Notes: generated by a model from the sequence alone, not told the origin. A stretch of 64,000 nt of DNA from Nanobdellati archaeon (GCA_027007025.1 JALTFL010000002.1:167066-231065); one strand, 5' to 3'; shown: positions 4,512-38,393, numbered from the stretch's first letter. Numbers and translations: made by a program.

Positions 4512-4688
4512 GGCCGCGTAGCTCAAGCACACCCTTCTTAAGAAGAAGCGTGTACGGAAGAAGGGGGGTGCGGCAAGGCGGTTAGAGCGGCAGCCTGTTA
4601 AAGAACCCTTTCTTAGAAAGAAAGCGTTCACGGAAAGAAGGGGTTGGCTGTAAGCTGTAGGTCGGCGGTTCGAATCCGCCCGCGGCCG
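4512..4688 (+). tRNA. tRNA-Asn(GTT), two introns
   Basis: Acceptor GGCCGCG/CGCGGCC with discriminator G. D-stem GCTC/GAGC. Anticodon stem GCAGC/GCTGT with loop CTGTTAA. Variable region AGGTC. T-arm GGCGG-TTCGAAT-CCGCC. Intron 1 is about 4529-4578 in the D-loop. Intron 2 is about 4602-4653 at 37/38. TATA CTTTATAAA at 4479-4487, about -27. Confidence 0.75.
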
Positions 4689-4708
4689 CTTTCTTAATTT
4701 ATATAAAT

Positions 4709-5866
4709 GTGAACCAGTTTCTTTTTCTTATGCCGTTTACGAATATATTTCACTGGATGCAGAAGCTGAACAAGGAACTTGAGGAAGTTTATCTGACGTT
4801 GTATCTTAGGAAATTTGCCATAACTCTCGCAGGCATATTTATTCCAATTTATCTTTATACCATAGGATACAATTTTGGCGAGGTAATTGCAGTTGTTGCT
4901 ATGATGTACGCCGCAAAGATAATCCTCTCCCCTGTTTCGCTGAAAGTGAGCGAGAAGATTGGCGTCAAGCACACTATAATACTGAATGTTCCTCTTTTGC
5001 TTTTGTTCCTTTGGATGCTTTACATGCTTCCGAATTATCCCCATTATATAGGATATTTAGTTGCTCCCTTAATCTCCGCGTCGAACATGTTTTTTTGGAT
5101 TCCCATCAACAGCATATTCGCGAGATACGCTCACAAGAAAAGAACGGGCAAGGAAACAAGCTATCTTATGCTTACGTCGCGCCTTAGCGGAGTAATAGCC
5201 CCATTAGTCGGTGGTATAATTCTAACCGAACTTTCCTTCAACTACTTGTTTGCCATTGTCGGGGCAATTATGTCATTGAGCCTTATTCCATTGTTTATGT
5301 CCAAGGATTACGGCTGCAAAAGAAAAGATGTAGGCATGAAGATGGTGGGTGAGCATTTTAAGTATTATGTCGTGTATTTTATACAGGGTATGCTTTCAGC
5401 TACAATATATCTTGTGATTCCCTTCCTTTCACTTATGCTTTTGAAATCTTATGTATCAGTCGGCTCGGTCTCAACGCTTTTGCTGGTCGGCTCGTTTTTC
5501 GTCATATTTGTTGTGGGAAAACTCACGGACAAGTTTGAAGGCAAGCACCTCATAAAAATCGGCGGTGTTGTTCTTTCAGCGTCCCTCTTGATTTTGGCTT
5601 ACGCTAAGTCACCGTGGGTGGTTTATCTTTCGGTTCTTCTTGTAGGTATCGGCGTGGTGATGGTGTTTCTTCCAATTTTTGCGATTTCATCTCTGATTGC
5701 CAAGAAATACAACGAAACAGAGTTCATGATGATGCGGGAAATTTTCCTAGCCGCCGGCTCCACGACTTTTCTTTTGTCACTGCTCATTTTCCCAGATTCT
5801 CTTAAAATAATGGCGGGACTTTTAGTATCCGCTTTGGTTTCGGTTTACTTTGTTTTTTTCAGGTGA
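4709..5866 (+). CDS. MFS-type membrane transporter (about 12 TM)
   Basis: Hydrophobic helices throughout. Start uncertain. Confidence 0.45.
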   Translation: MNQFLFLMPFTNIFHWMQKLNKELEEVYLTLYLRKFAITLAGIFIPIYLYTIGYNFGEVIAVVAMMYAAKIILSPVSLKVSEKIGVKHTIILNVPLLLLFLWMLYMLPNYPHYIGYLVAPLISASNMFFWIPINSIFARYAHKKRTGKETSYLMLTSRLSGVIAPLVGGIILTELSFNYLFAIVGAIMSLSLIPLFMSKDYGCKRKDVGMKMVGEHFKYYVVYFIQGMLSATIYLVIPFLSLMLLKSYVSVGSVSTLLLVGSFFVIFVVGKLTDKFEGKHLIKIGGVVLSASLLILAYAKSPWVVYLSVLLVGIGVVMVFLPIFAISSLIAKKYNETEFMMMREIFLAAGSTTFLLSLLIFPDSLKIMAGLLVSALVSVYFVFFR

Positions 5867-6089
5867 TATGATGGAAAAGAAGATGAAAATTGCAGCTTCA
5901 AAGACGGCTTTTGTTTTTGGGCTCCTTGTTTGGATTTATGTAATCGCGATGCAGATAGCACATCCAGAAAGCGTCAGCTGGACATTTACATCTTGGCTTA
6001 GAATTAGAATGGACTTTGTCGGAGAAATTTCATTTTTGATTTCCATAATCAGTTTTTTTGTTTGGCAACTAGTAACGCTTAAAAAGTAG
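5850..6089 (+). CDS. small membrane protein
   Basis: 79 aa with 2 predicted TM helices. Overlaps the upstream stop. Confidence 0.3.
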   Translation: MFFSGDMMEKKMKIAASKTAFVFGLLVWIYVIAMQIAHPESVSWTFTSWLRIRMDFVGEISFLISIISFFVWQLVTLKK

Positions 6090-6106
6090 TGATTTTTTAA
6101 CTCATT

Positions 6107-6817
6107 ATGGGGAAACTTGAAGAAATAACTACGGAGATAGCATCGGTAGATAATGTAAAAGGAATTGTTATCTTTGGTTCATACGTCACTTCTTTGTCGC
6201 CCAGAGATATTGATGTTTTGGTTGTGTTGGGCTCGGATTTTTTTTTAACAAATCCGGAGGATTACAAGCAAATTGCGTCGTCATTGTTTAAACATTCCAT
6301 ATTTCCATCATTAGATATAACAATAAAAACGGATAAGGAATTTGAGATTACAAATATTGTTTCCCTTTCAAGGGGTTTCCTCCAGCACTTAAACAATGTA
6401 GGCAACATAATCTATGATGAGATTGGTCTTGAGAAAAATATACTCAAGCGACTTACGGAATTAAAATCAATGGACGGGTACTGGAATGAACTTGGCGACT
6501 CGCTTTCAATAAGAAAAGAGTACCTTTCAAGTTTATTGGGCAAGGATTACTCGCTTTCAGCTAGATTTTACCAGCAGGCAGTTAGAGAAGTGATGAAACT
6601 GGAGTTTCCAGAAGAGTTAGATACCAAAGATAGTATAATCCAACTTTTTTATGATACTCTTTTTGAAAAAGTGGATTATGCTTCGTTTTTTGGAGAATCT
6701 CCTGAGTTTACAGTATATAGAGTTTTGAATGCATTTAGATATAATAACCCTAGTGTGTTAAAAGATGAGATTGAAAAGGCAATGTTTGCCATGAATTCAT
6801 ATCTTGTATCTGAGTAA
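6107..6817 (+). CDS. nucleotidyltransferase-domain protein (Pol-beta superfamily)
   Basis: GS...DxD motif: IVIFGSYVTSLSPRDIDVLVVLGSD. Confidence 0.55.
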   Translation: MGKLEEITTEIASVDNVKGIVIFGSYVTSLSPRDIDVLVVLGSDFFLTNPEDYKQIASSLFKHSIFPSLDITIKTDKEFEITNIVSLSRGFLQHLNNVGNIIYDEIGLEKNILKRLTELKSMDGYWNELGDSLSIRKEYLSSLLGKDYSLSARFYQQAVREVMKLEFPEELDTKDSIIQLFYDTLFEKVDYASFFGESPEFTVYRVLNAFRYNNPSVLKDEIEKAMFAMNSYLVSE

Positions 6818-7858
6818 TGCTCCAACTTGCATTTCAGCGAATCTCTCTCCGGCTTCGTGCTCCTGGGAAATAATCGTCACGCTTGCCCCGTTTTTTTCGG
6901 CGTTTTCCATCAAGTTATTCAGTTCATCAAACTTGTTTTCCTCTTTGAGCTTTTCGATGTAACTGTCTGATACCAGTAAAGACCCCACCGCTCCGTATTC
7001 GACTGCTTTCTTGACTTCCTTGAGTCCATACGTCGCGAGCCCATCTTTTGAAACTTCCTCGAAGAATTTTTCAACTAACTTAGTCTCCTCGGAAATTCTT
7101 CCGCCTCTTGCGACTTTTTCAACGGCGCCTCTCTTGATGAGTTCGTTTATGCCTGTTTTCCCATGAGTGGATATCTTGAATAGGTTAATCTTTTTCTTGA
7201 GCTCAGGAAATTTTTCGATTATCTTTTTGAAATTTTCTGACAGGAACCCGACTCCGCCGAACACTATTTTGTTGACATTGTTGTGCTTCGCAGTTTCCTC
7301 GAGAAGTCTTGCTAGTTCAGTTAGAAATTCCTCTCTGCTTTTGTCGTAGAGCTTTTGTGCTTCCTTCTTTTTTCCGGGAAGCGACTTTGTCAAGTCTGTT
7401 ATATATTCAATTCCGAATTCCTTAAGCAGTGCGATTGTAGCGTCGCCGTAATCTGCCGCGCACAAAATCAGTTTCGGCTTTTTAGTCGATTCGACAGCAT
7501 CTTTTATTCTTTTAATCTGCCAGTTCTGCCAGTTTTCTTTTTTTATTGACAAAATATTTCCCCTTTCAACTGTGATGGTGTGAAACACTCCGTGTGGAAC
7601 ATTTTGATTTGATGATTCCACAATAGTTCCAAGAAGCCTAAGGGTGTTTTTTTGGAATTCAACTTTTTCGACTTTCAGCTTAACCCTCAATTTTACTCTT
7701 TTTCCCTCTTGCTCATCTGTCTTTTTCACAATTCTTGTCGTTTCGCTTTCAATCTCGTCGTCTTTGTCTATTATTCTTGAGAGCACCCAAATGTCATCAA
7801 GAGTGTCCACCTTAACTTTTAGGATTCCCTCTTTTTTATCCTCAAATATTATTTTCAT
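6797..7858 (-). CDS. pelA: Pelota/Dom34 mRNA surveillance factor
   Basis: N-terminus MKIIFEDKKEGILKVKVDTLDDIWVLSRII is Pelota-like. Length 353 aa. No GGQ, so not aRF1. Confidence 0.7.
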   Translation of the reverse strand: MKIIFEDKKEGILKVKVDTLDDIWVLSRIIDKDDEIESETTRIVKKTDEQEGKRVKLRVKLKVEKVEFQKNTLRLLGTIVESSNQNVPHGVFHTITVERGNILSIKKENWQNWQIKRIKDAVESTKKPKLILCAADYGDATIALLKEFGIEYITDLTKSLPGKKKEAQKLYDKSREEFLTELARLLEETAKHNNVNKIVFGGVGFLSENFKKIIEKFPELKKKINLFKISTHGKTGINELIKRGAVEKVARGGRISEETKLVEKFFEEVSKDGLATYGLKEVKKAVEYGAVGSLLVSDSYIEKLKEENKFDELNNLMENAEKNGASVTIISQEHEAGERFAEMQVGALLRYKI

Positions 7859-7946
7859 GTTTAATTTTATTCCTATGGTATATATAAACTAAACTCTATT
7901 TTGGCGTCATAAAACTTTTATAAAAGATAAACTCCTTTTTCATTTT

Positions 7947-8078
7947 ATGGTGAGAGACGAGGAAAGTTTGGTATGCCCGAACTGTGGTTCTAAAGAAATT
8001 GTTTTGCTTGAGTCTACAGGCGAAATGTACTGCAAAAAATGCGGCACCATACTTGAAGAAGAGTTGTTGAGGGCATAG
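7947..8078 (+). CDS. small zinc-ribbon protein (TFIIB-type CxxC...CxxC, 43 aa)
   Basis: Missed by the ORF track. MVRDEESLVCPNCGSKEIVLLESTGEMYCKKCGTILEEELLRA. Confidence 0.45.
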   Translation: MVRDEESLVCPNCGSKEIVLLESTGEMYCKKCGTILEEELLRA

Positions 8079-8160
8079 ATTTATAGGAAAAGCCCAATAT
8101 TGTTTTTAATAGATTTTTTCATCCACTAAGTTTATTAACTTCAGGTTAATTCTAATTCAT

Positions 8161-8412
8161 ATGTGTCTAAAACAATGGAAAAAAATGGAACCCTGGATGC
8201 AGGATGGAACGGTAGGCTTCGCAGTCGGATTGGTTCTTTACATTCTTAGACTGTTAGGGATTACATTTCCGTACTTGTCCAACTGGAACGCCGCAAATTT
8301 ATCGTTGGGAGCAGTAGGAGTAACAATGGTTGTCGCATACACCATCATTGGTATTTTTATTGGAGAACTAATTGAGCAAACGACAGGCATTAAAAGAAAA
8401 CGAAAGAAGTAA
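8161..8412 (+). CDS. small membrane protein
   Basis: 83 aa, 2 TM. Confidence 0.3.
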   Translation: MCLKQWKKMEPWMQDGTVGFAVGLVLYILRLLGITFPYLSNWNAANLSLGAVGVTMVVAYTIIGIFIGELIEQTTGIKRKRKK

Positions 8413-9516
8413 TTACTTAATTAACATCAATGTTTGGTATAAAATACCAGTGGTAAAGATAAGAATAGAATAATATATCGGTAAGTTTCCGCCTGGAATA
8501 ATCTTTTTGAATTTCTTCGTTTTTCTTGCTTTTAGGGCCATTACCATAGTCAACAAGCCGAGCATTCCGCCGGCGTATGTACCTGAGATTTGAAGGAATG
8601 TTATGAAACCCAATTTGACATACACATAAATTAGAAATGGTATGAACGCTGAAAGGAACCATGACATCCTTTTGTCAAGTCCAAAGTCGTTTACATACAC
8701 ATGTTTTATCGCGTCAGACAATGCTATGAACGGAACACCCATTGCGATTAGCACGAACAAATCCCCCAATATTCTGTAATGGGGCAGTCCAACAACAGCG
8801 ACTTCATTTACGCCAGTTCCCAAGCTGCCGACAAAAACATACGAGAACAAGGCATATGTTGACAACACTATTAGCATTGCAATTGTGCTTGCGGTTATTA
8901 CCTTTCTTTTGTCTTTTCCAAGGACTTTTTTCATTTCAGGAATTACATTGTAACCCAGACATGAGAATAATACAATCCCGAAAGGAATGAATATCTTTGA
9001 TGAGCTTAAAATGAAATTCTGTGAATTGCTTGCAGATGGAATGAAAACTGCTATCAAAAACACCAGCAGAATGATTTTTAGCGCCGCAATCGACAAATCA
9101 AGCTTGTTGAACCTCTTGAAGCCGAACAAAATCAAAGCCGCAGCAAACACGAAGAATGCAGTTCCCATTATCAATGGGCTTCCGCCAAGCATGTCCGCAA
9201 GGGCATATCCAATTGCTATAAGGTATGCTATTATCGCGGTATATATACCGAACGTTTCTGTCGCGAGCGTGAAAAATTTTCCTTTTCTTCCGAAATACTT
9301 CTTGGCGAGTCCGGATATCATATGCTCCTTTTTTTCGTTAAGCGACAATTCTGCGATATAAAGAGTCATAAATGTTGTCGCAATTCCGACGATGATGATA
9401 GTCACTAAACCTGTCAAAAATCCAATTTGTGAAAAAATATAGGGAAATCCAAGAATTGAAGCGCCGGCCACTGTGCTGACCATGAGTGCAACTGCAGTAA
9501 AAAGCTTCGAGTTCAT
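8413..9516 (-). CDS. amino acid permease (Trp/Tyr-permease / AAAP-like)
   Basis: Polytopic protein similar to aromatic amino acid permeases. The start is trimmed to an internal Met (MNSKLF) because the longer ORF would overlap the tRNA 5' end at 9560. Confidence 0.5.
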   Translation of the reverse strand: MNSKLFTAVALMVSTVAGASILGFPYIFSQIGFLTGLVTIIIVGIATTFMTLYIAELSLNEKKEHMISGLAKKYFGRKGKFFTLATETFGIYTAIIAYLIAIGYALADMLGGSPLIMGTAFFVFAAALILFGFKRFNKLDLSIAALKIILLVFLIAVFIPSASNSQNFILSSSKIFIPFGIVLFSCLGYNVIPEMKKVLGKDKRKVITASTIAMLIVLSTYALFSYVFVGSLGTGVNEVAVVGLPHYRILGDLFVLIAMGVPFIALSDAIKHVYVNDFGLDKRMSWFLSAFIPFLIYVYVKLGFITFLQISGTYAGGMLGLLTMVMALKARKTKKFKKIIPGGNLPIYYSILIFTTGILYQTLMLIK

Positions 9517-9559
9517 ACATAGTAAAGCTTTTAATATATTTATATTATTTTCTAAGTAT

Positions 9560-9812
9560 GCTCCCATAGTCTAGGAACCCTTTCTTGGGAAGAAAGCGTT
9601 CACGGAAAGAACCAAGAGAGGGATGGACATTCCGGTCAAGGATGCTGGACTCTCGCAACACCCTTTCTTAAAAGAAAGCGTGTACGGAAAGAACTTCCGT
9701 GGTGTTGGGGATATCCAGTGACCCGGGTTCAAAAGCACTTTCTCTCTTTGAAAAGAGAGAACCTGCGCTAAGAGAGAAACTTGGCGAGTGTTTGAAAGTC
9801 CCGGTGGGAGCA
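9560..9812 (+). tRNA. tRNA-Glu(CTC) (probable), three introns
   Basis: Acceptor GCTCCCA/TGGGAGC with discriminator A. D-stem GTCT/GGAT. Anticodon stem CTGGA/TCCAG with loop CTCTCG..A. T-arm CCGGG-TTCAAA..-CCCGG. Introns about 9576-9633 (D-loop), 9656-9712 (anticodon loop) and 9734-9797 (T-loop). TATA-like AT tract 9526-9545. T-tract after 9812. Confidence 0.6.
9718..9804 (+). repeat. 87-nt T-arm+T-loop-intron module, identical to 24327..24413
   Basis: GTGACCCGGGTTCAAAAGCAC...GTTTGAAAGTCCCGG reads identically in tRNA-Glu and tRNA-Gly(TCC). A diverged copy on the minus strand lies at about 38235..38292. Confidence 0.8.
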
Positions 9813-9884
9813 TTTTTTCTTTTTAGAAAATGTAAAATTTTATGAAGAATTAAATAAAAGGTATTTAATTATAATAAGAAGTAG

Positions 9885-10232
9885 GTGATGATTATCAGTG
9901 GGTTTGGATATGGTATCAAAAAGAGTACAAGCGAAGTAATTACTGGAGTTGTTGCCACCTCAGTTTATGGAGTGTTAGCAAACATGGGATTAATTCCATA
10001 TGAGATAGTTTTAGTATTTAATGTATTATCTATACTAGGGGTAATATTCCTTATAGAGAAAGCTCCATTTTGGTCGCTAACTTACTTAATTGGCTGGGTA
10101 ATTGGTATAATTTTTATGATATCTGTGGGTCTCTTGAGTTGGGTTGATATTACCATTTATATTGCTGTATCAATAGTATCTATTATGATAAAACTGGGTG
10201 TTCTTAACAGTCACTCTTCTCACTCTATATAA
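9885..10232 (+). CDS. small membrane protein
   Basis: 115 aa, 3 TM. Confidence 0.3.
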   Translation: MMIISGFGYGIKKSTSEVITGVVATSVYGVLANMGLIPYEIVLVFNVLSILGVIFLIEKAPFWSLTYLIGWVIGIIFMISVGLLSWVDITIYIAVSIVSIMIKLGVLNSHSSHSI

Positions 10233-10292
10233 TTATTTATGGTATCATTACCTCAAGGAAATTGAAAATACTTTTCAATGTATAAAAAAGTT

Positions 10293-10520
10293 TTATCTAA
10301 TTTTTTTATACATATCACATAAGTAATCATATAATGAGAACATAAATAAAAATCCTACTGTTTCACCCATGAGCCCACCTAAAAATTCAGCAGATAAAAA
10401 ATATGATACTGTTGCGCCGCCAAGTACGGAAAGGAAGGTAGTGATGATAAATGCTAATCCTATAGAGATATACACTCTTACTTTTAATCTACTTTTGAAT
10501 GTTTCAGTTGTATTTTTCAT
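10293..10520 (-). CDS. small membrane protein
   Basis: 75 aa, 2 TM. Confidence 0.25.
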   Translation of the reverse strand: MKNTTETFKSRLKVRVYISIGLAFIITTFLSVLGGATVSYFLSAEFLGGLMGETVGFLFMFSLYDYLCDMYKKIR

Positions 10521-10593
10521 GTTAATGATTAAATGGTTTGAATTATTTAAATATTTTGATGTATGTCAATAATCTATTTTGTGAAGTAGTATT

Positions 10594-13488: not shown

Positions 13489-13505
13489 AGGGTAAAAATT
13501 TACAT

Positions 13506-13772
13506 GCGGGGGTGCCGGAGAGCCTTTCTTTCCGCCTTCTTAAAAAGAAGGCAGGTTGCCAAGAAGGAAAGAAAGAGCACGGAACGGTCAAACGGGCTGG
13601 GCTTAGGCGCATCTTTTCTTAAGAAGAAAAGCTGCACCAAAAGAAATCATTTTGGTGGATGCGTGGAAACCCAGTGGGTTAGTCCCTACGCGAGTAAGCC
13701 TTTTCTTGCGAAGAAAAGCCTTAAGGGAAAAGAAGCAGGATGGCTTCGCGATTTCGAATCTCGTCCCCCGCA
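13506..13772 (+). tRNA. tRNA-Leu(TAG), class II, three or more introns
   Basis: Acceptor GCGGGGG/CCCCCGC with discriminator A. Ser/Leu-type D-region (GCCGGAG...CGGTCAAACGGG). Anticodon stem CTGGG/CCCAG with loop CTTAGG..A. Long variable hairpin GGGTTAGTCCC. TTCGAAT T-loop. Introns about 13521-13584 (D-loop, looks nested), 13608-13668 (37/38) and 13695-13743 (T-stem/loop junction, with a clear 3-nt AGT bulge between CGCG and AAGCC/GGCTT helices). The T-stem has one mismatch. Confidence 0.6.
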
Positions 13773-13782
13773 TTTCATTATT

Positions 13783-13968
13783 ATGGCAAAGTGCAAATGG
13801 TACAATGTTTGTCCTATCGTGAGGTTTGTTGAGGAAGGCAGGCTCGATAGGAAGTGGGTTGAGAAATACTGCCTTGTTGGCAACAAAAAATGCATCCGTT
13901 ACCAAATGGAGGAAAAGGACGAGCCCCATCCTGACAATTTGCTTCCGGATGGAACTTACTTAAAGTAG
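13783..13968 (+). CDS. small Cys-rich protein (CxxxC...CxxxxxC)
   Basis: ATG directly after the tRNA. MAKCKWYNVCPIV...YCLVGNKKC. The longer track ORF 13504..13968 is an artefact that reads through the tRNA. Confidence 0.45.
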   Translation: MAKCKWYNVCPIVRFVEEGRLDRKWVEKYCLVGNKKCIRYQMEEKDEPHPDNLLPDGTYLK

Positions 13969-20713: not shown

Positions 20714-20786
20714 TGCCTCAGCACCGCCTTCTTAGGAAGAAGGTAGGTTGCCAAGAAATGCCTCGGTGGCATGATGTTGAGGTGAT
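20714..20786 (+). other. structured tRNA-Thr 5' leader with intron-like motif and pseudo 5'-half
   Basis: GCCTCAGCA (20715-23) can pair with TGTTGAGGT (20775-83). It encloses CCTTCTTAGGAAGAAGG-TAGGTTGCCAAGAA, a homolog of the element inside the tRNA-Leu D-loop intron. It also carries a duplicate of the tRNA 5' end, GCCTCGGTGGC, at 20760-70. Confidence 0.5.
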
Positions 20787-20940
20787 GCCTCGGTGGCGCA
20801 GTCGGTAGCGCGTAAGCCTTTTCTTTCCGTAAGAAAAGCATTAAGGGAAAAGAGATGGCTGTGCAGTTGCTTGGTAATTGGCTGCGTTTGGAAGCTTTCC
20901 AATGAGCAAAAGGTCGTGGGTTCGAATCCCACCCGAGGCT
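20787..20940 (+). tRNA. tRNA-Thr(GGT), two introns
   Basis: Acceptor GCCTCGG/CCGAGGC with discriminator T. D-arm GCGC-AGTCGGTA-GCGC. Intron 1 about 20813-20865, after position 26. Anticodon stem GTTGC/GCAAA with loop TTGGTAA. Intron 2 about 20878-20905 (28 nt, 37/38). Variable region AGGTC. T-arm GTGGG-TTCGAAT-CCCAC. Confidence 0.6.
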
Positions 20941-24182: not shown

Positions 24183-24421
24183 GCGCCGTTAGTCTAGCGA
24201 CCTTTTCTCTCGAGAAAAGCTCGACCAAAAGAGAGAAGGTTGGACAATGGTTAGGATCCGAGCCTTCCACCAACCCTTTCTTTCCAAAAGAAAGCGTTGA
24301 CGGAAAGAAAGGTAGGAGGTGAGCTCGTGACCCGGGTTCAAAAGCACTTTCTCTCTTTGAAAAGAGAGAACCTGCGCTAAGAGAGAAACTTGGCGAGTGT
24401 TTGAAAGTCCCGGACGGCGCA
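24183..24421 (+). tRNA. tRNA-Gly(TCC), three introns
   Basis: Acceptor GCGCCGT/ACGGCGC with discriminator A. D GTCT-AGC..GGTTA-GGAT. Anticodon stem CGAGC/GCTCG with loop CTTCCA..A. Variable region TGAC. T-arm CCGGG-TTCAAA..-CCCGG. Introns about 24199-24248 (D-loop), 24270-24321 (37/38) and 24343-24407 (T-loop). T7 tract after 24421. Confidence 0.7.
24327..24413 (+). repeat. second copy of the 87-nt T-arm+intron module
   Basis: See 9718..9804. Confidence 0.8.
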
Positions 24422-24477: not shown

Positions 24478-25257
24478 GTGGAAAATCTGAGGGATTTGTT
24501 CAGCGAAGTAAAGAATCTAAGAGACAAAAAAAGGAACATGCTTGATAAGATTAGAGTAATTAATAATTCTATTCATACAAAGATGGAAAAAAAGAAGGAA
24601 ATTGCCAAGATTGTCAAGAAAAACAAAGGAGAGCGAGATAGAATTGTAGAAGAAATCAAGAAATTGATGGAGAAATTAAAAAGCATACCAAAGTCAGATA
24701 TCAAAGAGGATCCTAGAAGGATAAGAAAATTGATTGAAAGACTTGACTGGAAAATCCAGACAGAAGTTATGCCATACAAGAAGGAGCAGGAGCTCACGAA
24801 GAAGATAAAGGAACTACAGGTGCAGGCGGAGGAGCTTGAAAAGAAATACATAGGCATGAGAGAAAGGGGCAAAATAGAAAACGAAATCAAGCATCTGGAA
24901 CAGGAAAAGAGACTGCTTCATTCAACAGTCATCTCATATTCAAAGCAGTGGAAGGAGATTCATTCTGAAATCGAAAGTTTGATGGAAAAGAAAAACGAGC
25001 TTTTCAAGAAGATGGATGAGATTAATTCTAAAGTAAAAGAAATTGATGCCAAGATAGATTCTGTTAAGAAGGAAATTGGCAGGGAAAAAGCCAAAAGGAT
25101 AGAAGCCGAAGTTTTGGAGAGGGAAAAACGCAGCAAGATAATCAAAGACAAAATAAATGAAAAATTGCTTGAAGTCAAGGAAAAATTCAAGCATAAGAAG
25201 AAGCTGACAAAAGATGATTTGATGATACTCCAAGCGGCAGACGAAGGAATAATCTAA
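24478..25257 (+). CDS. K/E-rich coiled-coil protein
   Basis: 259 aa of heptad-like low complexity. Confidence 0.4.
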   Translation: MENLRDLFSEVKNLRDKKRNMLDKIRVINNSIHTKMEKKKEIAKIVKKNKGERDRIVEEIKKLMEKLKSIPKSDIKEDPRRIRKLIERLDWKIQTEVMPYKKEQELTKKIKELQVQAEELEKKYIGMRERGKIENEIKHLEQEKRLLHSTVISYSKQWKEIHSEIESLMEKKNELFKKMDEINSKVKEIDAKIDSVKKEIGREKAKRIEAEVLEREKRSKIIKDKINEKLLEVKEKFKHKKKLTKDDLMILQAADEGII

Positions 25258-25333
25258 AAGCACCTTCTTAAAGAGAAGCTGCACCAAGAAAAGAAAGTTT
25301 TATCAAAGAAATTATTTATAATAAATACTAAAA
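25258..25333 (+). other. intron-like element between ORF stop and tRNA-Gly(CCC)
   Basis: CCTTCTTAAAGAGAAGCTGCACCAAGAAAAGAAAG is homologous to the anticodon-loop intron of tRNA-Leu (13611-13648). Confidence 0.5.
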
Positions 25334-25454
25334 GCGCCACTAGTCTATTGGTAGGATACGAGCTTCCCAAGACCTTTTCTTTGGGAAAGAAAAGCTCTAC
25401 CAAAAGAAAGGTTGTAAACAGCTCGGGAGCCGGGTTCGATTCCCGGGTGGCGCA
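25334..25454 (+). tRNA. tRNA-Gly(CCC), one canonical anticodon-loop intron
   Basis: Acceptor GCGCCAC/GTGGCGC with discriminator A. D GTCT-ATTGGTA-GGAT. Anticodon stem CGAGC/GCTCG with loop TTCCCAA. Intron about 25371-25420 (50 nt, 37/38). Variable region GGAG. T-arm CCGGG-TTCGATT-CCCGG. Confidence 0.8.
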
Positions 25455-28796: not shown

Positions 28797-29040
28797 ATAC
28801 TACTTGTGCCTAAGAAAGAGCTGGCAAGTCGGGGGCGAGAAACGAAGTGTCAAATTTTCTGTGAGTAGTTTTACCTTAGCTTATGCTCTTTAGATTATGT
28901 TATAAAAAGAGGAGGTGCCGGAATGGCAAAGAAAAAGAAGCAAGGCAAGAAAAAATAATTTCTCTCACGAATTCAATTTTTTATCATTTTTTTCTTTTTT
29001 TGTTTTGAATATATATCCGAAACATTTATATATAAGTTAT

Positions 29041-29090
29041 GAATACATATTCTTAATATATATTCAAAATGAATATATAGAATATCTTCA
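29041..29090 (+). promoter_or_regulatory. AT-rich inverted-repeat operator-like region upstream of the DUF5320 operon
   Basis: GAATACATATTC palindrome, plus AATATATATTC / GAATATATAG inverted pair and a further GAATATATA at 29009. Confidence 0.3.
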
Positions 29091-29109
29091 AAAAATGGGG
29101 GTGGTAATT

Positions 29110-29397
29110 ATGCCATACGGAGATAGAACAGGTCCGGAAGGAAAAGGACCAAGAACTGGAAGAGGACTTGGATACTGCGGCGGATACGACAGCCCAGGAT
29201 ACACAAGAGGAACACCAAGAGGAATGGGTTACGGAAGAGGTGCAGGCAGGGGCTTCGGAAGAGGCTTCGGCTGGAACAGAGCACCTGTAAACCAGACAAC
29301 GACTCAATCAACAAATGACGACTCATTGAAAGAGGAAGTAAGTGCATTGAAAAAAATGGTTGAGGAATTGAAAAAGAAAATAGATGAACTTAAATAA
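29110..29397 (+). CDS. DUF5320-like GRG-repeat protein
   Basis: MPYGDRTGPEGKGPRTGRGLGYCGG then RGxGxGRG repeats and a C-terminal coiled coil. GGGGTGG SD. The track ORF from 28915 is an extension. Confidence 0.6.
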   Translation: MPYGDRTGPEGKGPRTGRGLGYCGGYDSPGYTRGTPRGMGYGRGAGRGFGRGFGWNRAPVNQTTTQSTNDDSLKEEVSALKKMVEELKKKIDELK

Positions 29398-30348: not shown

Positions 30349-30656
30349 AAATTGCCGTATCATCTGAGGGAGATAATGAAAATACACAAGTGAGCATGGT
30401 AAGCGGAAGGGCGCCGTATTATTTAATTTTTGAAGACGAAAATCTTGTCGAAGCTGTAAAAAACCCATTTGCCCTTGGGGGGGGTGGAGCCGGATTTGGA
30501 GTAGCACAAATGCTTGCGAATAAGGGTGTTGAAATTGTCGTAAGTGGAAAGTTCGGCCCAAATATGAGTTCCTCACTTCAGTCGAAAGGAATAAAAATTG
30601 TTGAAATGTCTGGATTAACAGCAAAAGAGGCGGTAAAGAGGGTCTTAAATGCCTAG
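30345..30656 (+). CDS. NifX/NifB-like dinitrogenase FeMo-cofactor-binding domain protein
   Basis: [10 protein letters not shown]...[12 protein letters not shown]...[23 protein letters not shown] matches the PF02579-type pattern. Confidence 0.7.
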
Positions 30657-31005
30657 ACCTATAAAATTCAGAAGAGTTGGATTCAACCCAGGTGCAATTT
30701 ATTTCAAACCTGTAGGTATACCCATGTCAACTTTGGAAGAAGTTATCTTGACAATGGAAGAATTTGAGGCAATTAGGCTTAAGGACTTGGAAGGACTTGA
30801 CCAAACAGAAGCTGCCAAAAAAATGAATGTCTCCCAGCCCACATTCAACAGAATTTTAAACTCTGCAAGAAGCAAAATAGCCGATGCATTAACAAATGGT
30901 AAGGCAATCCGTATAGAAGGTGGAAATTATGAATTTGTTGGCGGCGGAAGAGGTATGGGTAGGGGCTTTGGTAGAGGAAGAGGTATGGGGCGTGGTAGAG
31001 GATAA
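30649..31005 (+). CDS. DUF134 (UPF0251) predicted DNA-binding protein with GRG-repeat tail
   Basis: [17 protein letters not shown]...[35 protein letters not shown]-terminus [21 protein letters not shown]. Confidence 0.7.
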
Positions 31006-31007
31006 TT

Positions 31008-31757: not shown

Positions 31758-32081
31758 ATGGTAAAAGTGGATAGAGAAAAATGTATTGGCTGCGGTGTCT
31801 GTGTAAGCGTTTGTCCTGAAGGCTTTGAAATTGTAGAAGGAAAATCAAGAGTAAAAAATGAGAATGCCAAATGTATTGCTGAAGCAGCTGCTAAATGCCC
31901 TATGAAAGCAATTTTATTAAATGAAAATGAAGAAAAAAGTTCCTCACAACCGCAACAACAATCTCAACAAAAACCATCCCAACCATTAGAAAGAGGTATG
32001 AGACGTGGCAGAGGAAGAGGCATGGGAAGAGGACTCGGCAGGGGACGCGGAATGGGGCGCGGAAGAGGCGGTAAGTTTTGA
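31758..32081 (+). CDS. 4Fe-4S ferredoxin-domain protein with GRG-repeat tail
   Basis: CIGCGVCVSVCP and CPMKA cysteine motifs. C-terminal [22 protein letters not shown]. Confidence 0.6.
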   Translation: MVKVDREKCIGCGVCVSVCPEGFEIVEGKSRVKNENAKCIAEAAAKCPMKAILLNENEEKSSSQPQQQSQQKPSQPLERGMRRGRGRGMGRGLGRGRGMGRGRGGKF

Positions 32082-32818: not shown

Positions 32819-32885
32819 ATTGTCAATATAAGCATTACTGGACAACACCCTAAACTATAAAAAGGAAAATTTGGTAGTAATTTTC

Positions 32886-33923
32886 ATGGCAAAGAAATCT
32901 CCTAAAGAGGAAAAAGAAATTATTGAAGAAAAGGCAACTGATGTTGAAACAGCTCCAGAGCAAGTAACGGAGCCGGAGGAGAAATTTGAAATAGAAGATA
33001 TTCCTGGAGTCGGCGCGACGACAGCCCGGAAGATGAGGAGCGCCGGTTATGATGATCCAATGGGAATTGCCACGTCTAATCCTCTAAGCCTTGCGGAAGT
33101 TTGTGAGATTGGTGAGGCGACCGCAAGGAAGATTATACAAGCCGCACGCACTCATCTTAAGATGGATTTTGTAACTGGTGCGGAAATGCTCGAACGTATG
33201 AAAAAGATAAAAAAGATAACAACAGGTTCAAAGGCACTTGATAGTTTAATCGGCGGGGGAATAGAAACCCAAGCCATAACAGAAGCGTACGGCGCTTACG
33301 GAAGCGGAAAGTCACAGATGGCTTTTCAGCTCGCTATTAATGCACAACTTCCAGAGGAACAGGGAGGTTTGAATGGTGATGTAGTTTGGGTGGACACCGA
33401 AGGAACATTCCGTCCGAACAGAGTAATACAGCTTGCCGAAGCAAAAGGGTTGAATCCGAAGGAAGCCCTTGAAAGAATTCATGTCGCGAGAGCTTTTTCA
33501 GCGGACCATCAGATTTTGCTTGTTGAAAAGATACCTGAACTTTTCAAGAAATATCCTAACATAAAATTAATCATAGTTGATTCTCTCACTTCTATCTTTA
33601 GAAGCGAGTATGTGGGCAGGGGGACTCTTGCTGAGAGGCAGCAAAAACTCAACAAACACATACATACTTTGCAGAGATTGGCAGACAGGTATAATGTCGC
33701 AGTTTACATAACCAATCAGGTTATGGCAAAGCCTGATATGTTCTTTGGAGATCCGACACAAGCTGTAGGTGGACACGTGCTTGGTCACGCATCAACATAT
33801 AGGATTTATTTAAGGCATTCGAAAGGCGACAAGAGAGTAGCCAAACTTGTTGACTCACCGTGTTTACCAGAAGGCGAATGCGCGTTTAGGATAACAGAAG
33901 AAGGAATTCAAGATATTGATTAA
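32886..33923 (+). CDS. radA: DNA repair and recombination protein RadA
   Basis: HhH ([15 protein letters not shown]), Walker [10 protein letters not shown], Walker B LIIVDSL. ATG 32886. The track starts at TTG 32871. Confidence 0.85.
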
Positions 33924-35707
33924 TGGCGCTTTTTAAAAATAATATATACTCCACCAGCGAGTATTGTTATTAATAATATTAATATTGATAGCGATGACTT
34001 TCCATCTTCAAATATGAACAATCCCGTGAGGGATGGATTATTTTTTGATATTATGAATTGATAATCTTTTGAAATTATAGTTCCATCTTTGCTGCCAATT
34101 TTGAGGGTTGTATTATATACTCCTGTTTTGGTAAACTTGAGGATATACTCAAGCTTTGCTGTTTGATTAGGACATAATGTTGTTGAGTTAAATCTTTTAT
34201 CTACCATTGTAAACTTAATTGGCAATAGCGAAGAATTCAGCCCGAAAATTGTTTCGTTTGTCGGGTTTTCTATGTTGACTGAAACTGCCGTTGGTGTGTT
34301 AACATATGAATATACTTTTGTTGTGTTGTCTTTATAGATTGATGATTTGTTTATGGTAACTGTTTGATTGACAGTCTTGCTTGGTGAAGAAACACTTGTA
34401 AAAGTTTTGTCTATAATTTTTGTTTTCTGAAGTTCGAGCAAGTGAATGTCTGACAATTCAAATGGTCGCTTAACTTTCAATTTTATATCTCCTTCATAAT
34501 TGAGGCAACTGTTGTTTGCGGGAGCAATTAATATAATATTATTGTATTTTTTGAGCATATGTTGTTTTTGTGTGAGAATAATACTATCGTTTACAATCCC
34601 TTTTAAAATGCTGGATGTGTAATCTTTCGCAAAAGAAATTGTTTTGAAATCATTGTTGTCAAAATAAATAGCGAAACTGGTGTTTCTCATTCCAAATGCT
34701 TTTGCGGTGATTTTAACTTTAATAATACTTCCGTTAGCATATACCAGTCTGTTAGGATTTATTGACAATATCATTTTTGGAGACATATCAAACGAGAATG
34801 TTTTGTTTTTTGAAAATTTATCTGCGTTTATGTGAAAATTGAAATTTGTGTCAGGGCATCCTTTGCCGTCGTTATACATCCTGAAGTTGATTATTCTGCT
34901 TGACTTTCCCTCGGGGATGCTGTCAATTGGATTGTACTGTATGAACCACCCTTCATCATAATCAACCGAAATGTTTGGATAATAATTGTAATTTAAGGTA
35001 TCTATCTTGAACTGCAGCGGCATACCAATTGAAACATTTTTCTGCAATGGGGTGATGTTAACTTCAAAAATTTTGTTGTATACCTTCACAGTTGTATTGC
35101 TGCAAGTGTCGGCGCAAATCTCCAATGTGATTGTGCTTGTTTTTCTGTTTGGGTTTGTGGACTTGAATGGGATACTCACCTTTTTTGTGAACGAGCCGCT
35201 GCCCACAAAAATTTCATCGCTGGGTGTGTTGAATTCCATTTTGTTGAAATGTAATTTTATAACTACATTGTTGACATTCATAGCGTATGCTGTCGCGTTT
35301 ATGAAAAAAGAATTTCCTTTTTCAACTGTAAAACTGTTCGGGGCTGTTACTCTTGCGTATTTCGGCTTGACATTCACGAACAATATGTCGCTCTCATTGC
35401 CAATTGTAAACTTTATGCTAGTTTTTCCTGGAGTCAAAGCCGTAAAGTGATAACCGAGCGTTCCCGAGAATCCCCCATTTCCGAAGTCGACAACTTGGCT
35501 GGGAGAATCTAAACTTATGGCGCTTTCGTTGAAACTTGTTACAAGGAATATATGGTTTGATGTGTTTGTTGAAAATGAAACATTAATGCTGAAGGAATCT
35601 CCGTCAAGTACTTCAACGATGTCTTTTGAGGTAGACAAATATGGCTTTGCCACTGAAAGAATCATAAACACCAAACAAATTACCAATGCCGCCCTAACTT
35701 TATCCAT
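33920..35707 (-). CDS. secreted surface protein with C-terminal membrane anchor (adhesin/S-layer-like)
   Basis: N-terminal signal peptide. 595 aa rich in N/S/T. C-terminal TM plus KKRH. Confidence 0.45.
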
Positions 35708-35800
35708 TTCTCTTTCCGCCTTAGCGAGCGACTTTTCCCCCCTTTTAGAGGATAATTCTGGGGATTATAAAGGTTTTCCTAATATTTAGATAAGTTTATA

Positions 35801-36214
35801 TTGCTCTTTTTGTTAAATAATATTATGGAACTCAAAATTTTGATATTGTTTGTGGTCTTAGCATTAGCAGTTGTATCATTGGGATGTATTGGAGGCGAAA
35901 AACAGACGCCAATAAATTCAAATGTTAGCCACAATAATGAGATGCCTGTGACTAATGTAACAACATCAGAAAAGCAGATATACCAGTGTCCTTTAGATTC
36001 TAACAAAATAAATTATGACTGCGAAACCGATGCGGACTGTAAGATGGTAACATGCCATTCTGGCGCGGGAGATGTTGATGCGTGCGTGAGCGTGGATTCT
36101 GGATATGAAGGAGTTCATTCAACACACTGCGTCTGTAAGGTCACAGGCACATACACCTCTTTTGAGAATGGTACTACGACCACAGGGGAAATCAAAAACT
36201 GTAAGCATATCTGA
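35801..36214 (+). CDS. secreted Cys-rich small lipoprotein-like protein
   Basis: Signal peptide with LGC. At least 8 Cys in the mature part. Confidence 0.4.
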   Translation: MLFLLNNIMELKILILFVVLALAVVSLGCIGGEKQTPINSNVSHNNEMPVTNVTTSEKQIYQCPLDSNKINYDCETDADCKMVTCHSGAGDVDACVSVDSGYEGVHSTHCVCKVTGTYTSFENGTTTTGEIKNCKHI

Positions 36215-36219
36215 AGGGG

Positions 36220-36648
36220 GTGATACCTTTGTTTGAGGACATCTTTGGAGAATTTAGTAAGATGCAAAAGGATATGGAGAAATTGTTTTCTAAAATGTCA
36301 AATCAATTCAAAGAGTATGCCATTAGAGACGTACCCGCAGACATTTCTGAGTCAAATGGCGATGTGATTGTGAAGTTAGACATGCCTGGCGTCAACAAGA
36401 ATGACATAGATTTAGCAGTTACCGAGGATAGCATTTCTGTGAAAGCCAAACGTAAGGATATTCTTGAAGAAAATAAGGAAGGGATATATAGACAGGAAAG
36501 GGTGTCAAAGGGGTACAACTTTTACACCGAGCTTCCCGTGAGGGTGGAGCCGGAGACGGCTGAAGCAAAATACGAGAACGGTGTCTTGACTGTGAATATA
36601 AAAAAGGCAGAGAAGCAAAAGAATTCCAAAAAAGTGAAAGTGGAGTAA
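36220..36648 (+). CDS. hsp20: small heat shock protein (Hsp20/alpha-crystallin)
   Basis: Alpha-crystallin domain (VKLDMPGVNKNDIDLAV...AEAKYENGVLTVNI). Confidence 0.8.
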   Translation: MIPLFEDIFGEFSKMQKDMEKLFSKMSNQFKEYAIRDVPADISESNGDVIVKLDMPGVNKNDIDLAVTEDSISVKAKRKDILEENKEGIYRQERVSKGYNFYTELPVRVEPETAEAKYENGVLTVNIKKAEKQKNSKKVKVE

Positions 36649-36649
36649 T

Positions 36650-36958
36650 TTATTTTGTTATTATTTTTGTATATCTTTCTAGTAATGTTATAATAGTCGC
36701 GATTATTGTCAACCCTATTGTCCAGCTTAAAAGGACTTCCTCAAGTTTTTTCCATCCGAACTCTTGGTACATTATGATTGATGCTATGACTCCTATTATA
36801 ATAGGAATAGATATTACGCTTTTGAAGTGTGTTACTATAAATTTCAAGGATTCTTCTCTTTTGAGCCGCTCGTAGCTTTCGCCGTGCTTGTATCTCTCAG
36901 CTTTTTTTAGTTTGTATTTTTCCCATGAATTTTTCAGCATTCTATCGAGGTTGCTCAT
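36650..36958 (-). CDS. small membrane protein
   Basis: 102 aa, 2 TM. Confidence 0.3.
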   Translation of the reverse strand: MSNLDRMLKNSWEKYKLKKAERYKHGESYERLKREESLKFIVTHFKSVISIPIIIGVIASIIMYQEFGWKKLEEVLLSWTIGLTIIATIITLLERYTKIITK

Positions 36959-37015
36959 GTCAATTCCAATAAAGATTTATATTTTAAACCTTTCTAAGAT
37001 AATAGGGGGTATGAT

Positions 37016-37480
37016 ATGTTGGTGAGTTGTAGTATATGTGGCAAAAGAGATGCGACTGTTATAGCGGTTATTGAAGGAGTTTCTCTTGAAGTTTGCGACG
37101 AGTGCGCAAAGCTTGGAAGGGTGTCAAAAAGAATAGCCGAAAAGAAGGTAGTCAAGAAGACGAAGCCTGTTCCTCTGCGAAGGGAAGTGGAGGAATCAAT
37201 AGTTCTGGACTTCGCCGGAAAAATAAAGTCCGTCCGCGAGAAGAACGGCATGACTCAAGAAGATTTTGCTAAAACCCTGAATGAGAAGCTAAGCGTCATG
37301 AAGCACGTCGAAAACGGAAACCTGGTTCCGAGCCTCAAACTCGCCAGAAAGATAGAAGACAAGTTTGGCATTCAACTGATTGAGGAACAAGGAGAGGTCG
37401 GCGGAGGCGGAGCATCATTCGGCGCGTCGGAAAAGGCCACGCTGGGCGACTTGATTGAGATAAAAAGAAGAAAGAAATAA
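37016..37480 (+). CDS. mbf1: archaeal MBF1 homolog (zinc ribbon + HTH-XRE)
   Basis: N-terminal CSICG..CDEC Zn ribbon, then HTH (GMTQEDFAKTLNEKLSVMKHVENG). Confidence 0.65.
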   Translation: MLVSCSICGKRDATVIAVIEGVSLEVCDECAKLGRVSKRIAEKKVVKKTKPVPLRREVEESIVLDFAGKIKSVREKNGMTQEDFAKTLNEKLSVMKHVENGNLVPSLKLARKIEDKFGIQLIEEQGEVGGGGASFGASEKATLGDLIEIKRRKK

Positions 37481-37567
37481 TTACTGTTTTAATATTTCTT
37501 TTTTTGTTTTCATATAATTTTACATCACACCGAATGTTATAAAAAATACAAAAGAGTTAATTGATAT

Positions 37568-37906
37568 ATGCCATTTACAATTGTATCAACGCCAGCATTC
37601 ATGAGAAGAGTGAAGAAATTAAAAAAAGATCATAAGAATAGAATTAAAAAGTTTATAGAAAAAATCGAAAAAGAAGGATTGCATACCCTAAAGATTCTAA
37701 CCACTCAAAATGATTATATCCTTGGAGAAATAAAATCATCAAAGCCACCTTATAGATTATATGTTGTGTATGATCAAAAAACAAAAATATTCTACGCCTT
37801 ATTGTGGGAATCCAAAAACAAACAGAAGAAAATAATACGAAAATTAACTAAACAGCTAAAAATGGGTGTTGATATAGGGATAAATTATATATTTGGAGAA
37901 GAATAA
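37568..37906 (+). CDS. RelE/ParE-like toxin-fold protein (solo)
   Basis: The pattern ..KKFIEKIEKEGLHTLKIL..PPYRLYVVYDQKTKIFYALLWESKNKQ resembles the RelE superfamily. No antitoxin ORF is upstream. Confidence 0.3.
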   Translation: MPFTIVSTPAFMRRVKKLKKDHKNRIKKFIEKIEKEGLHTLKILTTQNDYILGEIKSSKPPYRLYVVYDQKTKIFYALLWESKNKQKKIIRKLTKQLKMGVDIGINYIFGEE

Positions 37907-37913
37907 AAAAAGA

Positions 37914-38144
37914 TTAGCCTAGTGCTTCTTTAAGTTCTTTTGCGGAGACTACTTTTATTTTTCCTGATTTTATTGCATCTACTTCTGCACCAAGCTTAAG
38001 CAATAAAAGTCTGTGGTAAAATTCAGTTGCAAAAGATTCTACAAGCTGTTTAGACATATTTCTAAGCATTTCCTTATCAAATTGTAGGACATCACCTTCT
38101 ATTTTTGCCACACCTTTCATCATTTTCACCTTGTAAATTAACAA
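37914..38144 (-). CDS. hypothetical protein
   Basis: 76 aa. Confidence 0.3.
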   Translation of the reverse strand: MLIYKVKMMKGVAKIEGDVLQFDKEMLRNMSKQLVESFATEFYHRLLLLKLGAEVDAIKSGKIKVVSAKELKEALG

Positions 38145-38201
38145 TCAAAGTGCTAAATATAAAGTTTTGCTTTATTATACACCGCTGACAAAAAGTTTAA
38201 G

Positions 38202-38393
38202 CGCCGGGACTGGGACTTCCACGCACCGCCAAGAGTTTCTCTCTTAGCGCAGGTTCTCTCTTTTCAAAGAGAGAAAGTGCTTTTGAACCCAGACATCCCG
38301 AAGGAAACAGGCTCTCGTAGACTTCTTTGGTCGAGCTTTCTTCCAAAGAAAGGTCATTCCAGGCCTGCGCAATACCAAGTTATGCGATCCCGG
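38202..38393 (-). tRNA. tRNA-Ser(GGA), class II, two introns
   Basis: Minus strand. Acceptor GCCGGGA/TCCCGGC with discriminator G. Anticodon stem CAGGC/GCCTG with loop CTGGAA(A/T). Long variable arm TTTCCTTCGGGATGT. T-arm CTGGG-TTCAAA..-CCCAG. Introns at 37/38 (about 43 nt) and in the T-loop (about 65 nt). TATA TTTATAAAAC on the minus strand at 38419-38428, about -30. T5 tract downstream. Confidence 0.7.

Follow-up and report, generated by a model that had tools for sequence, protein, structure and literature searches.

Seven tRNA genes of a low-GC DPANN-type archaeon interrupted by multiple predicted bulge-helix-bulge introns with a shared core

The analyzed DNA, a 64-kb stretch from a Nanobdellati archaeon (GCA_027007025.1, JALTFL010000002.1:167066-231065; hereafter the window, meaning the whole stretch of 64,000 nt, with positions counted from its first nucleotide), contains seven transfer RNA (tRNA) loci. 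In each of them inserts part the internal arms, and the 7-bp acceptor stems are perfect. The loci were located by reading guanine-cytosine (GC)-rich patches around T-arm-like fragments, together with a recurrent CTTTCTT...AAGAAAG hairpin, and exon boundaries were set solely by the need for a normal cloverleaf, without reference to the bulge-helix-bulge (BHB) motif of archaeal splice sites. The initial annotation, made from the sequence alone, had named tRNAs Asn-GTT, Glu-CTC, Leu-TAG, Thr-GGT, Gly-TCC, Gly-CCC and Ser-GGA, all interrupted, with about 16 introns. This is borne out, exactly 16 introns being placed: three in each of tRNA-Glu, tRNA-Leu and tRNA-Gly(TCC), two in each of tRNA-Asn, tRNA-Thr and tRNA-Ser, and one in tRNA-Gly(CCC) (Table 1). 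Two or three introns are thus found in six of the seven genes, not in five, as first counted. The end of the feature (38393) had to be corrected, as tRNA-Ser starts at 38394.

The introns are 28-66 nt long and amount to 870 nt against 534 nt of exons, or 62% of the gene length. The exon order is colinear at every locus, with spans of 121-267 nt. The GC content is 58-68% in exons and 36-50% in introns, compared to ~38% in the genome. The placement of introns at non-canonical positions, also part of the initial annotation, holds for nine of the 16: four are in the D-loop between positions 15 and 16 (15/16; Asn, Glu, Leu, Gly-TCC), one at 27/28 (Thr), one at 53/54 (Leu), and three at 59/60 (Glu, Gly-TCC, Ser). 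The other seven, one per gene, occupy the canonical position 37/38. Of the sites named originally, the D-loop, 37/38 and the T-loop or T-stem junction stand, while the intron described as following position 26 is best placed at 27/28. TATA-like boxes lie ~25-35 nt upstream of the tRNA genes, and most genes are followed by T-runs; both signals fit expressed genes. The low-GC, DPANN-like context is confirmed as well: the GC fraction of the window is 0.35-0.40, the closest loci come from metagenome-assembled genomes (MAGs) labelled Nanoarchaeota, Woesearchaeota and Parvarchaeota, and the host is a low-GC archaeon of the DPANN type.

Removal of the introns yields products of 71-84 nt, which ARAGORN with default settings calls as Asn(gtt), Glu(ctc), Leu(tag), Thr(ggt), Gly(tcc), Gly(ccc) and Ser(gga), that is, cloverleaves with the expected identities. 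All seven have a 7-bp acceptor stem, G18G19 in the D-loop and a TTCRANT T-loop, and class II variable arms are present in the spliced Leu and Ser tRNAs. The closing of cloverleaves by the predicted exons had been named beforehand as a point on which the prediction could fail, and it is seen for all seven products. The window itself yields no tRNA with default ARAGORN and a single match to the Rfam tRNA model at the gathering threshold (Thr, 20787-20940, 46 bits, aligned with a 72-nt insertion). With its intron option, ARAGORN picks up three loci and misnames two of them, in agreement with the expectation that standard finders miss or mis-call these genes. Extra tRNAs reported under relaxed ARAGORN thresholds were obvious false positives within open reading frames (ORFs), and Rfam matches to mir-4484 and tmRNA were by-products of intron hairpins and T-arms. 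Further tRNAs were sought in GC-rich non-coding patches of the window, which proved to be small protein genes, and in the flanks, where none was found in the 3.5 kb before and the 1.9 kb after the window. The search of the 64 kb and ~5 kb of flanks turned up no uninterrupted tRNA.

The archaeal splice site consists of a 4-bp helix followed by a 3-nt bulge on each strand, with the cut after the second bulge base; this cut-position rule, established knowledge for the family, is the geometry of the anticodon-intron pair. As a control for BHB formation, the same intron lengths were slid along the same precursors. The central helix (H) is complete, with four pairs of four, at ten of the 16 junctions, compared to 3.0% of control positions (binomial P=4e-12); three pairs are formed at four junctions and two pairs at two. 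The combination of H>=3 with an inner helix (h') of at least 5/6 is observed at 12 of the 16 junctions versus 1.9% of controls (P=3e-18), and the inner helix has at least 4/6 pairs in all 16 introns. The strict motif, including the outer helix, is formed by the T-loop introns, the 27/28 intron and most 37/38 introns, and the relaxed HBh' motif, with no outer helix, by the D-loop and 53/54 introns. Target-site duplication was rejected as a general feature of the introns: direct repeats present at most junctions are a consequence of the near-palindromic BHB helices, and true duplications occur only at the 5'-flank copies of the core described below.

Table 1. Coordinates and properties of the interrupted tRNA genes, their predicted introns and further features of the window (H, central helix; h', inner helix; outer, outer helix)
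Feature	Position	Strand	Properties
tRNA-Asn(GTT)	4512..4688	+	exons 4512-4526, 4577-4600, 4653-4688; mature 75 nt; TTTATAAA box ~30 nt upstream
Asn intron 1	4527..4576	+	50 nt; D-loop 15/16; relaxed BHB, H 3/4, AAG in both bulges; core present
Asn intron 2	4601..4652	+	52 nt; 37/38; H 3/4, h' 5/6, outer 4/4; core present
tRNA-Glu(CTC)	9560..9812	+	exons 9560-9574, 9631-9655, 9713-9733, 9799-9812; mature 75 nt
Glu intron 1	9575..9630	+	56 nt; D-loop 15/16; H 4/4 with D-stem 5' strand
Glu intron 2	9656..9712	+	57 nt; 37/38; strict BHB, H 4/4, h' 6/6, outer 4/4
Glu intron 3	9734..9798	+	65 nt; T-loop 59/60; strict BHB
tRNA-Leu(TAG), class II	13506..13772	+	exons 13506-13520, 13585-13607, 13669-13694, 13753-13772; mature 84 nt
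Leu intron 1	13521..13584	+	64 nt; D-loop; second core module nested within first
Leu intron 2	13608..13668	+	61 nt; 37/38; weak central helix (H 2/4), strong flanking helices
Leu intron 3	13695..13752	+	58 nt; T-stem/T-loop junction 53/54; H 4/4 (CGCG:CGCG)
tRNA-Thr(GGT)	20787..20940	+	exons 20787-20813, 20867-20876, 20905-20940; mature 73 nt
Thr intron 1	20814..20866	+	53 nt; anticodon stem 27/28; strict BHB, H 4/4, h' 5/6, outer 4/4
Thr intron 2	20877..20904	+	28 nt; canonical 37/38; sole intron without core module
tRNA-Gly(TCC)	24183..24421	+	exons 24183-24197, 24248-24269, 24322-24342, 24408-24421; mature 72 nt
Gly-TCC intron 1	24198..24247	+	50 nt; D-loop 15/16; H 4/4, h' 6/6
Gly-TCC intron 2	24270..24321	+	52 nt; 37/38; H 4/4, outer 4/4
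Gly-TCC intron 3	24343..24407	+	65 nt; T-loop 59/60
tRNA-Gly(CCC)	25334..25454	+	exons 25334-25369, 25420-25454; mature 71 nt; called directly by ARAGORN -i
Gly-CCC intron	25370..25419	+	50 nt; canonical 37/38
tRNA-Ser(GGA), class II	38202..38394	-	exons 38394-38357, 38313-38282, 38215-38202; mature 84 nt
Ser intron 1	38314..38356	-	43 nt; 37/38; weak central helix (H 2/4)
Ser intron 2	38216..38281	-	66 nt; T-loop 59/60
Insertion with free core module (20723-20763) between DUF167 gene stop codon and tRNA-Thr	20714..20786	+	
Free core module, upstream of tRNA-Gly(CCC)	25257..25297	+	
RtcB, tRNA-splicing ligase	60798..62285	-	Pfam PF01139, E=6.7e-175
Archease, RtcB cofactor	62275..62709	-	Pfam PF01951, E=2e-43

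The seven loci are very probably functional DPANN-type tRNA genes, each split by one to three short, protein-spliced BHB introns, where splicing itself, including cleavage by the archaeal tRNA splicing endonuclease (EndA), is what we infer from the sequence. Each gene would be transcribed as a single precursor, in which the end of the 5' exon would pair with the 3' end of the intron, forming a 4-bp helix between two 3-nt bulges, and the intron's own hairpin would provide the inner helix. EndA would then cleave in both bulges, and RtcB with Archease would ligate the exons and probably circularize the introns. RtcB and Archease join exon halves with 2',3'-cyclic phosphate and 5'-OH ends and circularize introns; in the window the two genes adjoin, with an overlap of 11 nt. 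As the D-loop and 53/54 introns form no outer helix, an EndA of broad specificity is expected. Such an enzyme has been proposed for DPANN lineages (PMC5829648), and EndA of ARMAN-2 is of the epsilon2 type (PMC3239211).

Relatives were reached via the neighbouring protein Nre. At the tRNA-Thr locus, the window shares ~97% identity with two assemblies of one population, tracing to the sample SAMN12239305 / ERZ23495180 and to the MAG GCA_015522785.1, and the interrupted tRNA-Asn locus recurs in a contig of this NCBI MAG (L080; loci from other assemblies are given as L numbers). The interrupted tRNA-Thr locus recurs in the independent assemblies L001 and L002, and orthologous interrupted tRNA genes, with partly different intron positions, are found in MAGs from other sites. 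The loci of the relatives, too, yield no tRNA with default ARAGORN. An artefact of assembly or binning, such as chimeric joins or collapsed repeats, is a natural concern for a sequence whose source is a MAG, but the recurrence of the same Thr and Asn loci in other assemblies and of orthologous genes at other sites makes it extremely improbable.

Several relatives lack individual introns. In particular, tRNA-Glu of L003, with no T-loop intron, reads GGGTTCAAATCCCGG, and tRNA-Glu of L004, with no D-loop intron, reads GTCTAGTCCGG, both being identical to the predicted junctions; in the latter, mature nucleotides 1-29 are contiguous and 100% identical. tRNA-Leu of L006 is uninterrupted across the D-loop and anticodon-loop junctions and colinear with the prediction, the Thr 27/28 intron is missing from L003, L004, L006 and L007, and the spliced tRNA-Gly(TCC) is colinear with the uninterrupted tRNA-Gly(TCC) of L008 and L009 (Nanohaloarchaea). 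The exons of tRNA-Glu are 100% identical to those of the L003 and L004 orthologues, and the differences between the window and L003 are confined to introns. Conserved exons and fast-changing introns, along with the TATA-like boxes and T-runs, fit functional genes rather than pseudogenes or assembly artefacts.

The relatives also differ in where introns reside. The Leu 53/54 intron is missing at that site in L003, L004 and L006, which carry a 59/60 intron instead, and tRNA-Thr has the 27/28 intron in the window versus a D-loop intron in L005; neighbouring proteins of the genomes showing such gains and losses are 77-86% identical. In tRNA-Leu(TAG) of L003 (5416-5684) and L004 (5886-6154) four introns have to be removed, from the D-loop, 37/38, the variable arm and 59/60, and the variable-arm intron (32-33 nt) has a complete central helix. 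When the 32-nt variable-arm insert is retained, the L003 product is not recognized as a tRNA. This bears on the possibility that the inserts are self-splicing group I or group II introns, or expansion segments kept in the mature tRNA. Nothing specific points to either, although group I introns are known in DPANN rRNA genes (PMC6125680), and both are next to negligible: the inserts are merely 28-66 nt long, whereas group I and II introns are well above 100 nt, no Rfam intron family matches them even at E<=10, and the tRNA fold would presumably suffer from inserts retained in the D-loop, the T-loop or the anticodon stem.

A module of ~40 nt, referred to here as the core, is present in 15 of the 16 introns, Thr intron 2 (28 nt) being the one without it. 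It consists of a pyrimidine tract Y (e.g. CCCTTTCTT), a short loop, a purine tract R1, which is the reverse complement of Y, a linker, and a second purine tract R2. The linker is 6-11 nt long and usually forms a mini-hairpin of 1-4 bp, e.g. CGT-NN-ACG or CCTTAAGG. Between the core and the splice sites lie flanks specific to each site, and these supply the central helix. The inner BHB helix of the splicing-competent fold arises by pairing of the 5' portion of Y with the 3' portion of R2 and the flanks. An unfiltered search of the entire window with a covariance model of this module gave 17 copies, 15 intronic and two in 5' flanks, and no further credible copy; the training copies fit the model by construction, and the informative part of this result is the lack of others. 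All 17 copies are at tRNA loci and on the tRNA strand. No C/D-box small RNA or k-turn motif was seen by eye in the introns.

Complementarity of Y to R1 and of Y to R2 is copy-specific (0/2000 permutations). Moreover, R2 mirrors R1 about the mini-hairpin linker: the median anchored identity run is 7, versus 2.6 for shuffled and 3.7 for reversed R2, in 90 unique copies from 5-6 subfamilies, where many of the copies were retrieved by a pattern fixing ~5 mirror positions, so that the independent support comes from the 5-6 sequence-distinct subfamilies. Plain Watson-Crick pairing of Y with R2 fits some copies, but was rejected as a general description, being worse than the mirror in 16 of 29 cases and better in five. 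As far as sequence can indicate, the arrangement of Y, R1 and mirror R2 is the design of a putative intramolecular purine-motif triplex or H-DNA mirror repeat. A mirror repeat is the sequence requirement for H-DNA (PMC11667243), while purine-motif triplexes containing RNA are disputed (PMC7583470).

In Leu intron 1, a module at 13533-13566 replaces the loop, R1 and the linker of the L003 and L004 orthologues, and belongs to a subfamily that is otherwise confined to the 5' flank of tRNA-Thr. Two-step splicing of one intron nested within another was considered here and rejected, since removal of the inner module leaves a loopless hairpin; nested insertion or replacement is the better reading. 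In the case of Thr intron 1, the alignment with the near-identical strains L001 and L002 covers 266 bases, and all five differences fall within 14 columns of this intron (loop, R1 and linker). The changes make Thr intron 1 resemble Leu intron 3, a hint of exchange between intron copies.

Sharing of introns between genes, suggested initially as intron families, is evident both from the common core and from near-complete copies. Glu intron 3 and Gly-TCC intron 3 are identical at 65 of 65 positions and lie within identical T-arms, and the first 48 nt of Ser intron 2 are identical to these T-loop introns, with differences where pairing with its own exon is required. Identical introns in different tRNAs, along with intron positions varying among close relatives, imply fast gain and loss of introns. 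Gain and loss probably proceed by spread of the shared core.

Of the two copies outside introns, the one upstream of tRNA-Thr lies in a 72-nt insertion, with the tRNA 5' end repeated directly on both sides of the core: TGCCTCAG at 20714, then TGCCTCGGTGGC at 20758 and again at 20786. L003 has no such insertion, and its tRNA starts 2 nt after the stop codon. Similar layouts are found upstream of tRNA-Glu in L004 (1608-1657) and twice in each of L063 and L077. The Thr insert was also considered as a leader or acceptor-stem BHB intron and rejected: its central helix has 4/4 pairs, but the inner and outer helices are poor, and the L004 and L063 analogues do not fit. The other copy begins a few nucleotides past the stop codon of the ORF 24478-25257. 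As the TATA-like box of tRNA-Gly(CCC) lies downstream of it, this copy probably does not belong to the pre-tRNA.

Beyond the window, a pattern search in metagenomes yielded 45 copies of one core subfamily on 40 contigs from many samples. Placement by Rfam puts the core within archaeal large-subunit (LSU) rRNA genes on six contigs (L045, L047, L049, L051, L065, L076), one of which, L076, has a sense and an antisense copy head to head, and within a small-subunit (SSU) rRNA gene (L070). On six contigs (L040, L042, L052, L054, L061, L072) the core starts 0-5 nt past the discriminator base of an otherwise normal tRNA, in several cases followed by a second hairpin, AATTCAC-TTCG-GTGAATT. The ~100-nt intron of tRNA-Trp(CCA) on L042 appears to hold C- and D-box-like motifs, as in a classical intron-encoded guide RNA. 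Other metagenome copies occur after protein genes, in intergenic DNA, as inverted pairs, or in tandem arrays that duplicate tRNA ends. The direct repeats of the tRNA 5' end next to some copies are 8-13 nt long and variable, and inverted pairs are found in metagenomes, yet 17 of 17 copies in the window are in the sense orientation.

A dispersed repeat of this kind raises the possibility that the tRNA genes are dead, having been hit by insertions similar to miniature inverted-repeat transposable elements (MITEs) or repetitive extragenic palindromes (REPs), with the cell relying on intact copies elsewhere. The copies in intergenic DNA, inverted pairs and tandem arrays in metagenomes agree with this, as do the two copies outside tRNAs in the window. 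Still, we regard it as very unlikely, for seven different isoacceptors would all have to be dead in a small genome, and the insertions would have to fall on BHB-forming sites far above chance, in the sense orientation in 15 of 15 intron copies. Moreover, the exons are perfectly conserved next to divergent introns, the acceptor stems are perfect after splicing, and the scanned 64 kb and flanks offer no uninterrupted tRNA.

Functional genes with protein-spliced introns remain the preferred reading, and several observations weigh against it. Leu intron 2 and Ser intron 1, both at 37/38, have only two of the four central pairs, four other introns have three, and repeated flanking bases leave some junctions free to move by 1-2 nt. 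The sample comprises only seven tRNAs, and other genomes with the same core also contain uninterrupted tRNAs. Finally, no EndA (PF01974/PF02778) was found among the ORFs of the window, with essentially all ORFs of at least 100 aa searched by Pfam and the unannotated ones by NCBIfam and with relaxed E-values. A 180-aa single-unit EndA is encoded on L042, which has the same core, beside tRNA-Trp(CCA) (4014-4556 and 4650-4830).

The core is read here as a mobile or at least proliferating element, which persists in stable-RNA genes because it is spliceable. No transposase was seen in the window. A viral origin was rejected on the basis of searches of viral contigs, in which the core was not found by the patterns tried, one pattern giving 0 matches and the other matching only coding sequence without a pyrimidine tract.

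A serious alternative to a mobile core, which we nevertheless consider rather unlikely, is that the core is not selfish but is a functional RNA signal, e.g. a binding site of a processing, chaperone or decay factor, located in those parts of precursors that are discarded, namely introns, leaders and trailers. The confinement of the window copies to tRNA loci and to the tRNA strand (17/17), the many metagenome copies that sit within rRNA genes or adjoin a tRNA discriminator base on its 3' side, and the co-variation of the three core segments across sequence-distinct subfamilies are all in line with such a role. It fits poorly with copies situated behind protein genes, in antisense or in inverted pairs, with Thr intron 2, which works without the core, and with the core interior being the part that changes fastest between strains. 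Moreover, the presence of the core at the same tRNA position varies in close relatives, and hence no single copy is required.

A more specific version of the mobile element reading, and a distinctly doubtful one, is that the core encodes a purine-motif triple helix (in RNA, single-stranded DNA or H-form DNA) that drives its own spread, seeding BHB introns in tRNA and rRNA genes and leaving copies in their flanks. Spread might then involve polymerase stalling and template switching, or reverse splicing. If true, such a self-propagating core would be the first sequence-defined vehicle for archaeal intron gain.

Some features of the neighbourhood can be mentioned. A class II aminoacyl-tRNA synthetase gene (3095-4453) directly precedes tRNA-Asn, and 0.8 kb from it lies a gene for a 223-aa protein (1657-2328, minus strand) matching the PF09414 RNA ligase family (E=1e-24), distinct from RtcB. 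Two ORFs downstream of RtcB (60213-60740 and 59823-60194) have no family match. The ORF 13504-13968 (154 aa), called mechanically, begins within tRNA-Leu; its true start is probably the ATG at 13783, giving a cysteine-rich protein of 61 aa with no family match. Glycine-arginine repeats are present in three neighbouring proteins, DUF5320, DUF134 and a ferredoxin (28915-29397, 30649-31005 and 31758-32081, respectively), being C-terminal in the latter two, and cause local GC peaks.

The type of feature described here is already known, and what is newly characterized is its extreme form: the density of introns, the four-intron genes of relatives and the dispersed three-part core. In the open-access literature we found no description of the intron load of this lineage, of the shared core, or of the core in rRNA genes and flanks. 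For surveys of DPANN genomes this means that standard tRNA finders will under-count tRNAs, and missing tRNAs may be mistaken for gene loss or split genes. The lineage is also favourable for studying intron gain in archaea, given the high density, visible gains and losses, identical introns in different tRNAs and a traceable core, and this set of introns may help to show how archaeal introns spread.

The closest known case is that of Thermoproteales, in which tRNA genes carry several introns and 'intron transposition' was deduced (Sugahara 2008 and Fujishima 2010, as presented in PMC4090602 and PMC8450103), with its mechanism not known (PMC4090602). As there, several short BHB introns reside in one tRNA gene, the genes are missed by standard finders, and introns closely resembling one another recur in unrelated tRNAs and at other positions, a sign of recent spread. 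The host here, however, is a low-GC DPANN-type archaeon rather than a crenarchaeon. The window has 2.3 introns per gene (16 in 7, in a sample of only seven genes), whereas the mean for Thermoproteales is 0.84 and the genome-wide maximum is 1.54, that is, 71 introns in 46 genes of P. calidifontis (PMC8450103). Moreover, tRNA-Leu of the relatives has four introns, the stated maximum for an archaeal tRNA gene being three (PMC8450103), and here one three-part core is common to 15 of the 16 introns and occurs also outside tRNAs. The initial statement that such density is known mainly from Thermoproteales needs amendment insofar as it leaves out a 2018 report on DPANN archaea (PMC5829648). Kaneta et al. 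2018 describe several DPANN lineages with markedly increased disruption of tRNA genes, including multi-intron genes, and take incomplete DPANN tRNA sets to hide unidentified disrupted genes. Its accessible part gives per-genome proportions and focuses on the enzyme, in particular EndA alpha4 with the L3 loop, and does not describe this lineage, the shared core, or its copies in rRNA genes and flanks.

Split and permuted tRNAs of Nanoarchaeum equitans, Caldivirga and Thermofilum likewise belong to DPANN or other archaea, involve BHB-like motifs and EndA, and are invisible to standard finders, but in the window all exons are colinear at one locus, and neither trans-splicing nor permutation is needed. 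The BHB introns of archaeal rRNA are related through the core, which is found in sense orientation in LSU and SSU rRNA genes from metagenomes, with at least one plausible BHB by eye, although the window itself contains no rRNA gene. Through the mirror symmetry of its purine tracts R1 and R2, the core would also resemble sequences that form H-DNA. Finally, the core is similar to REP/REPIN elements and MITEs in being a short, structured, multi-copy repeat, often situated just after genes, with inverted pairs and local duplications nearby, and appears to differ from them in having no terminal inverted repeats, fixed-length target duplication or associated transposase, and in its strictly sense orientation in tRNA genes.

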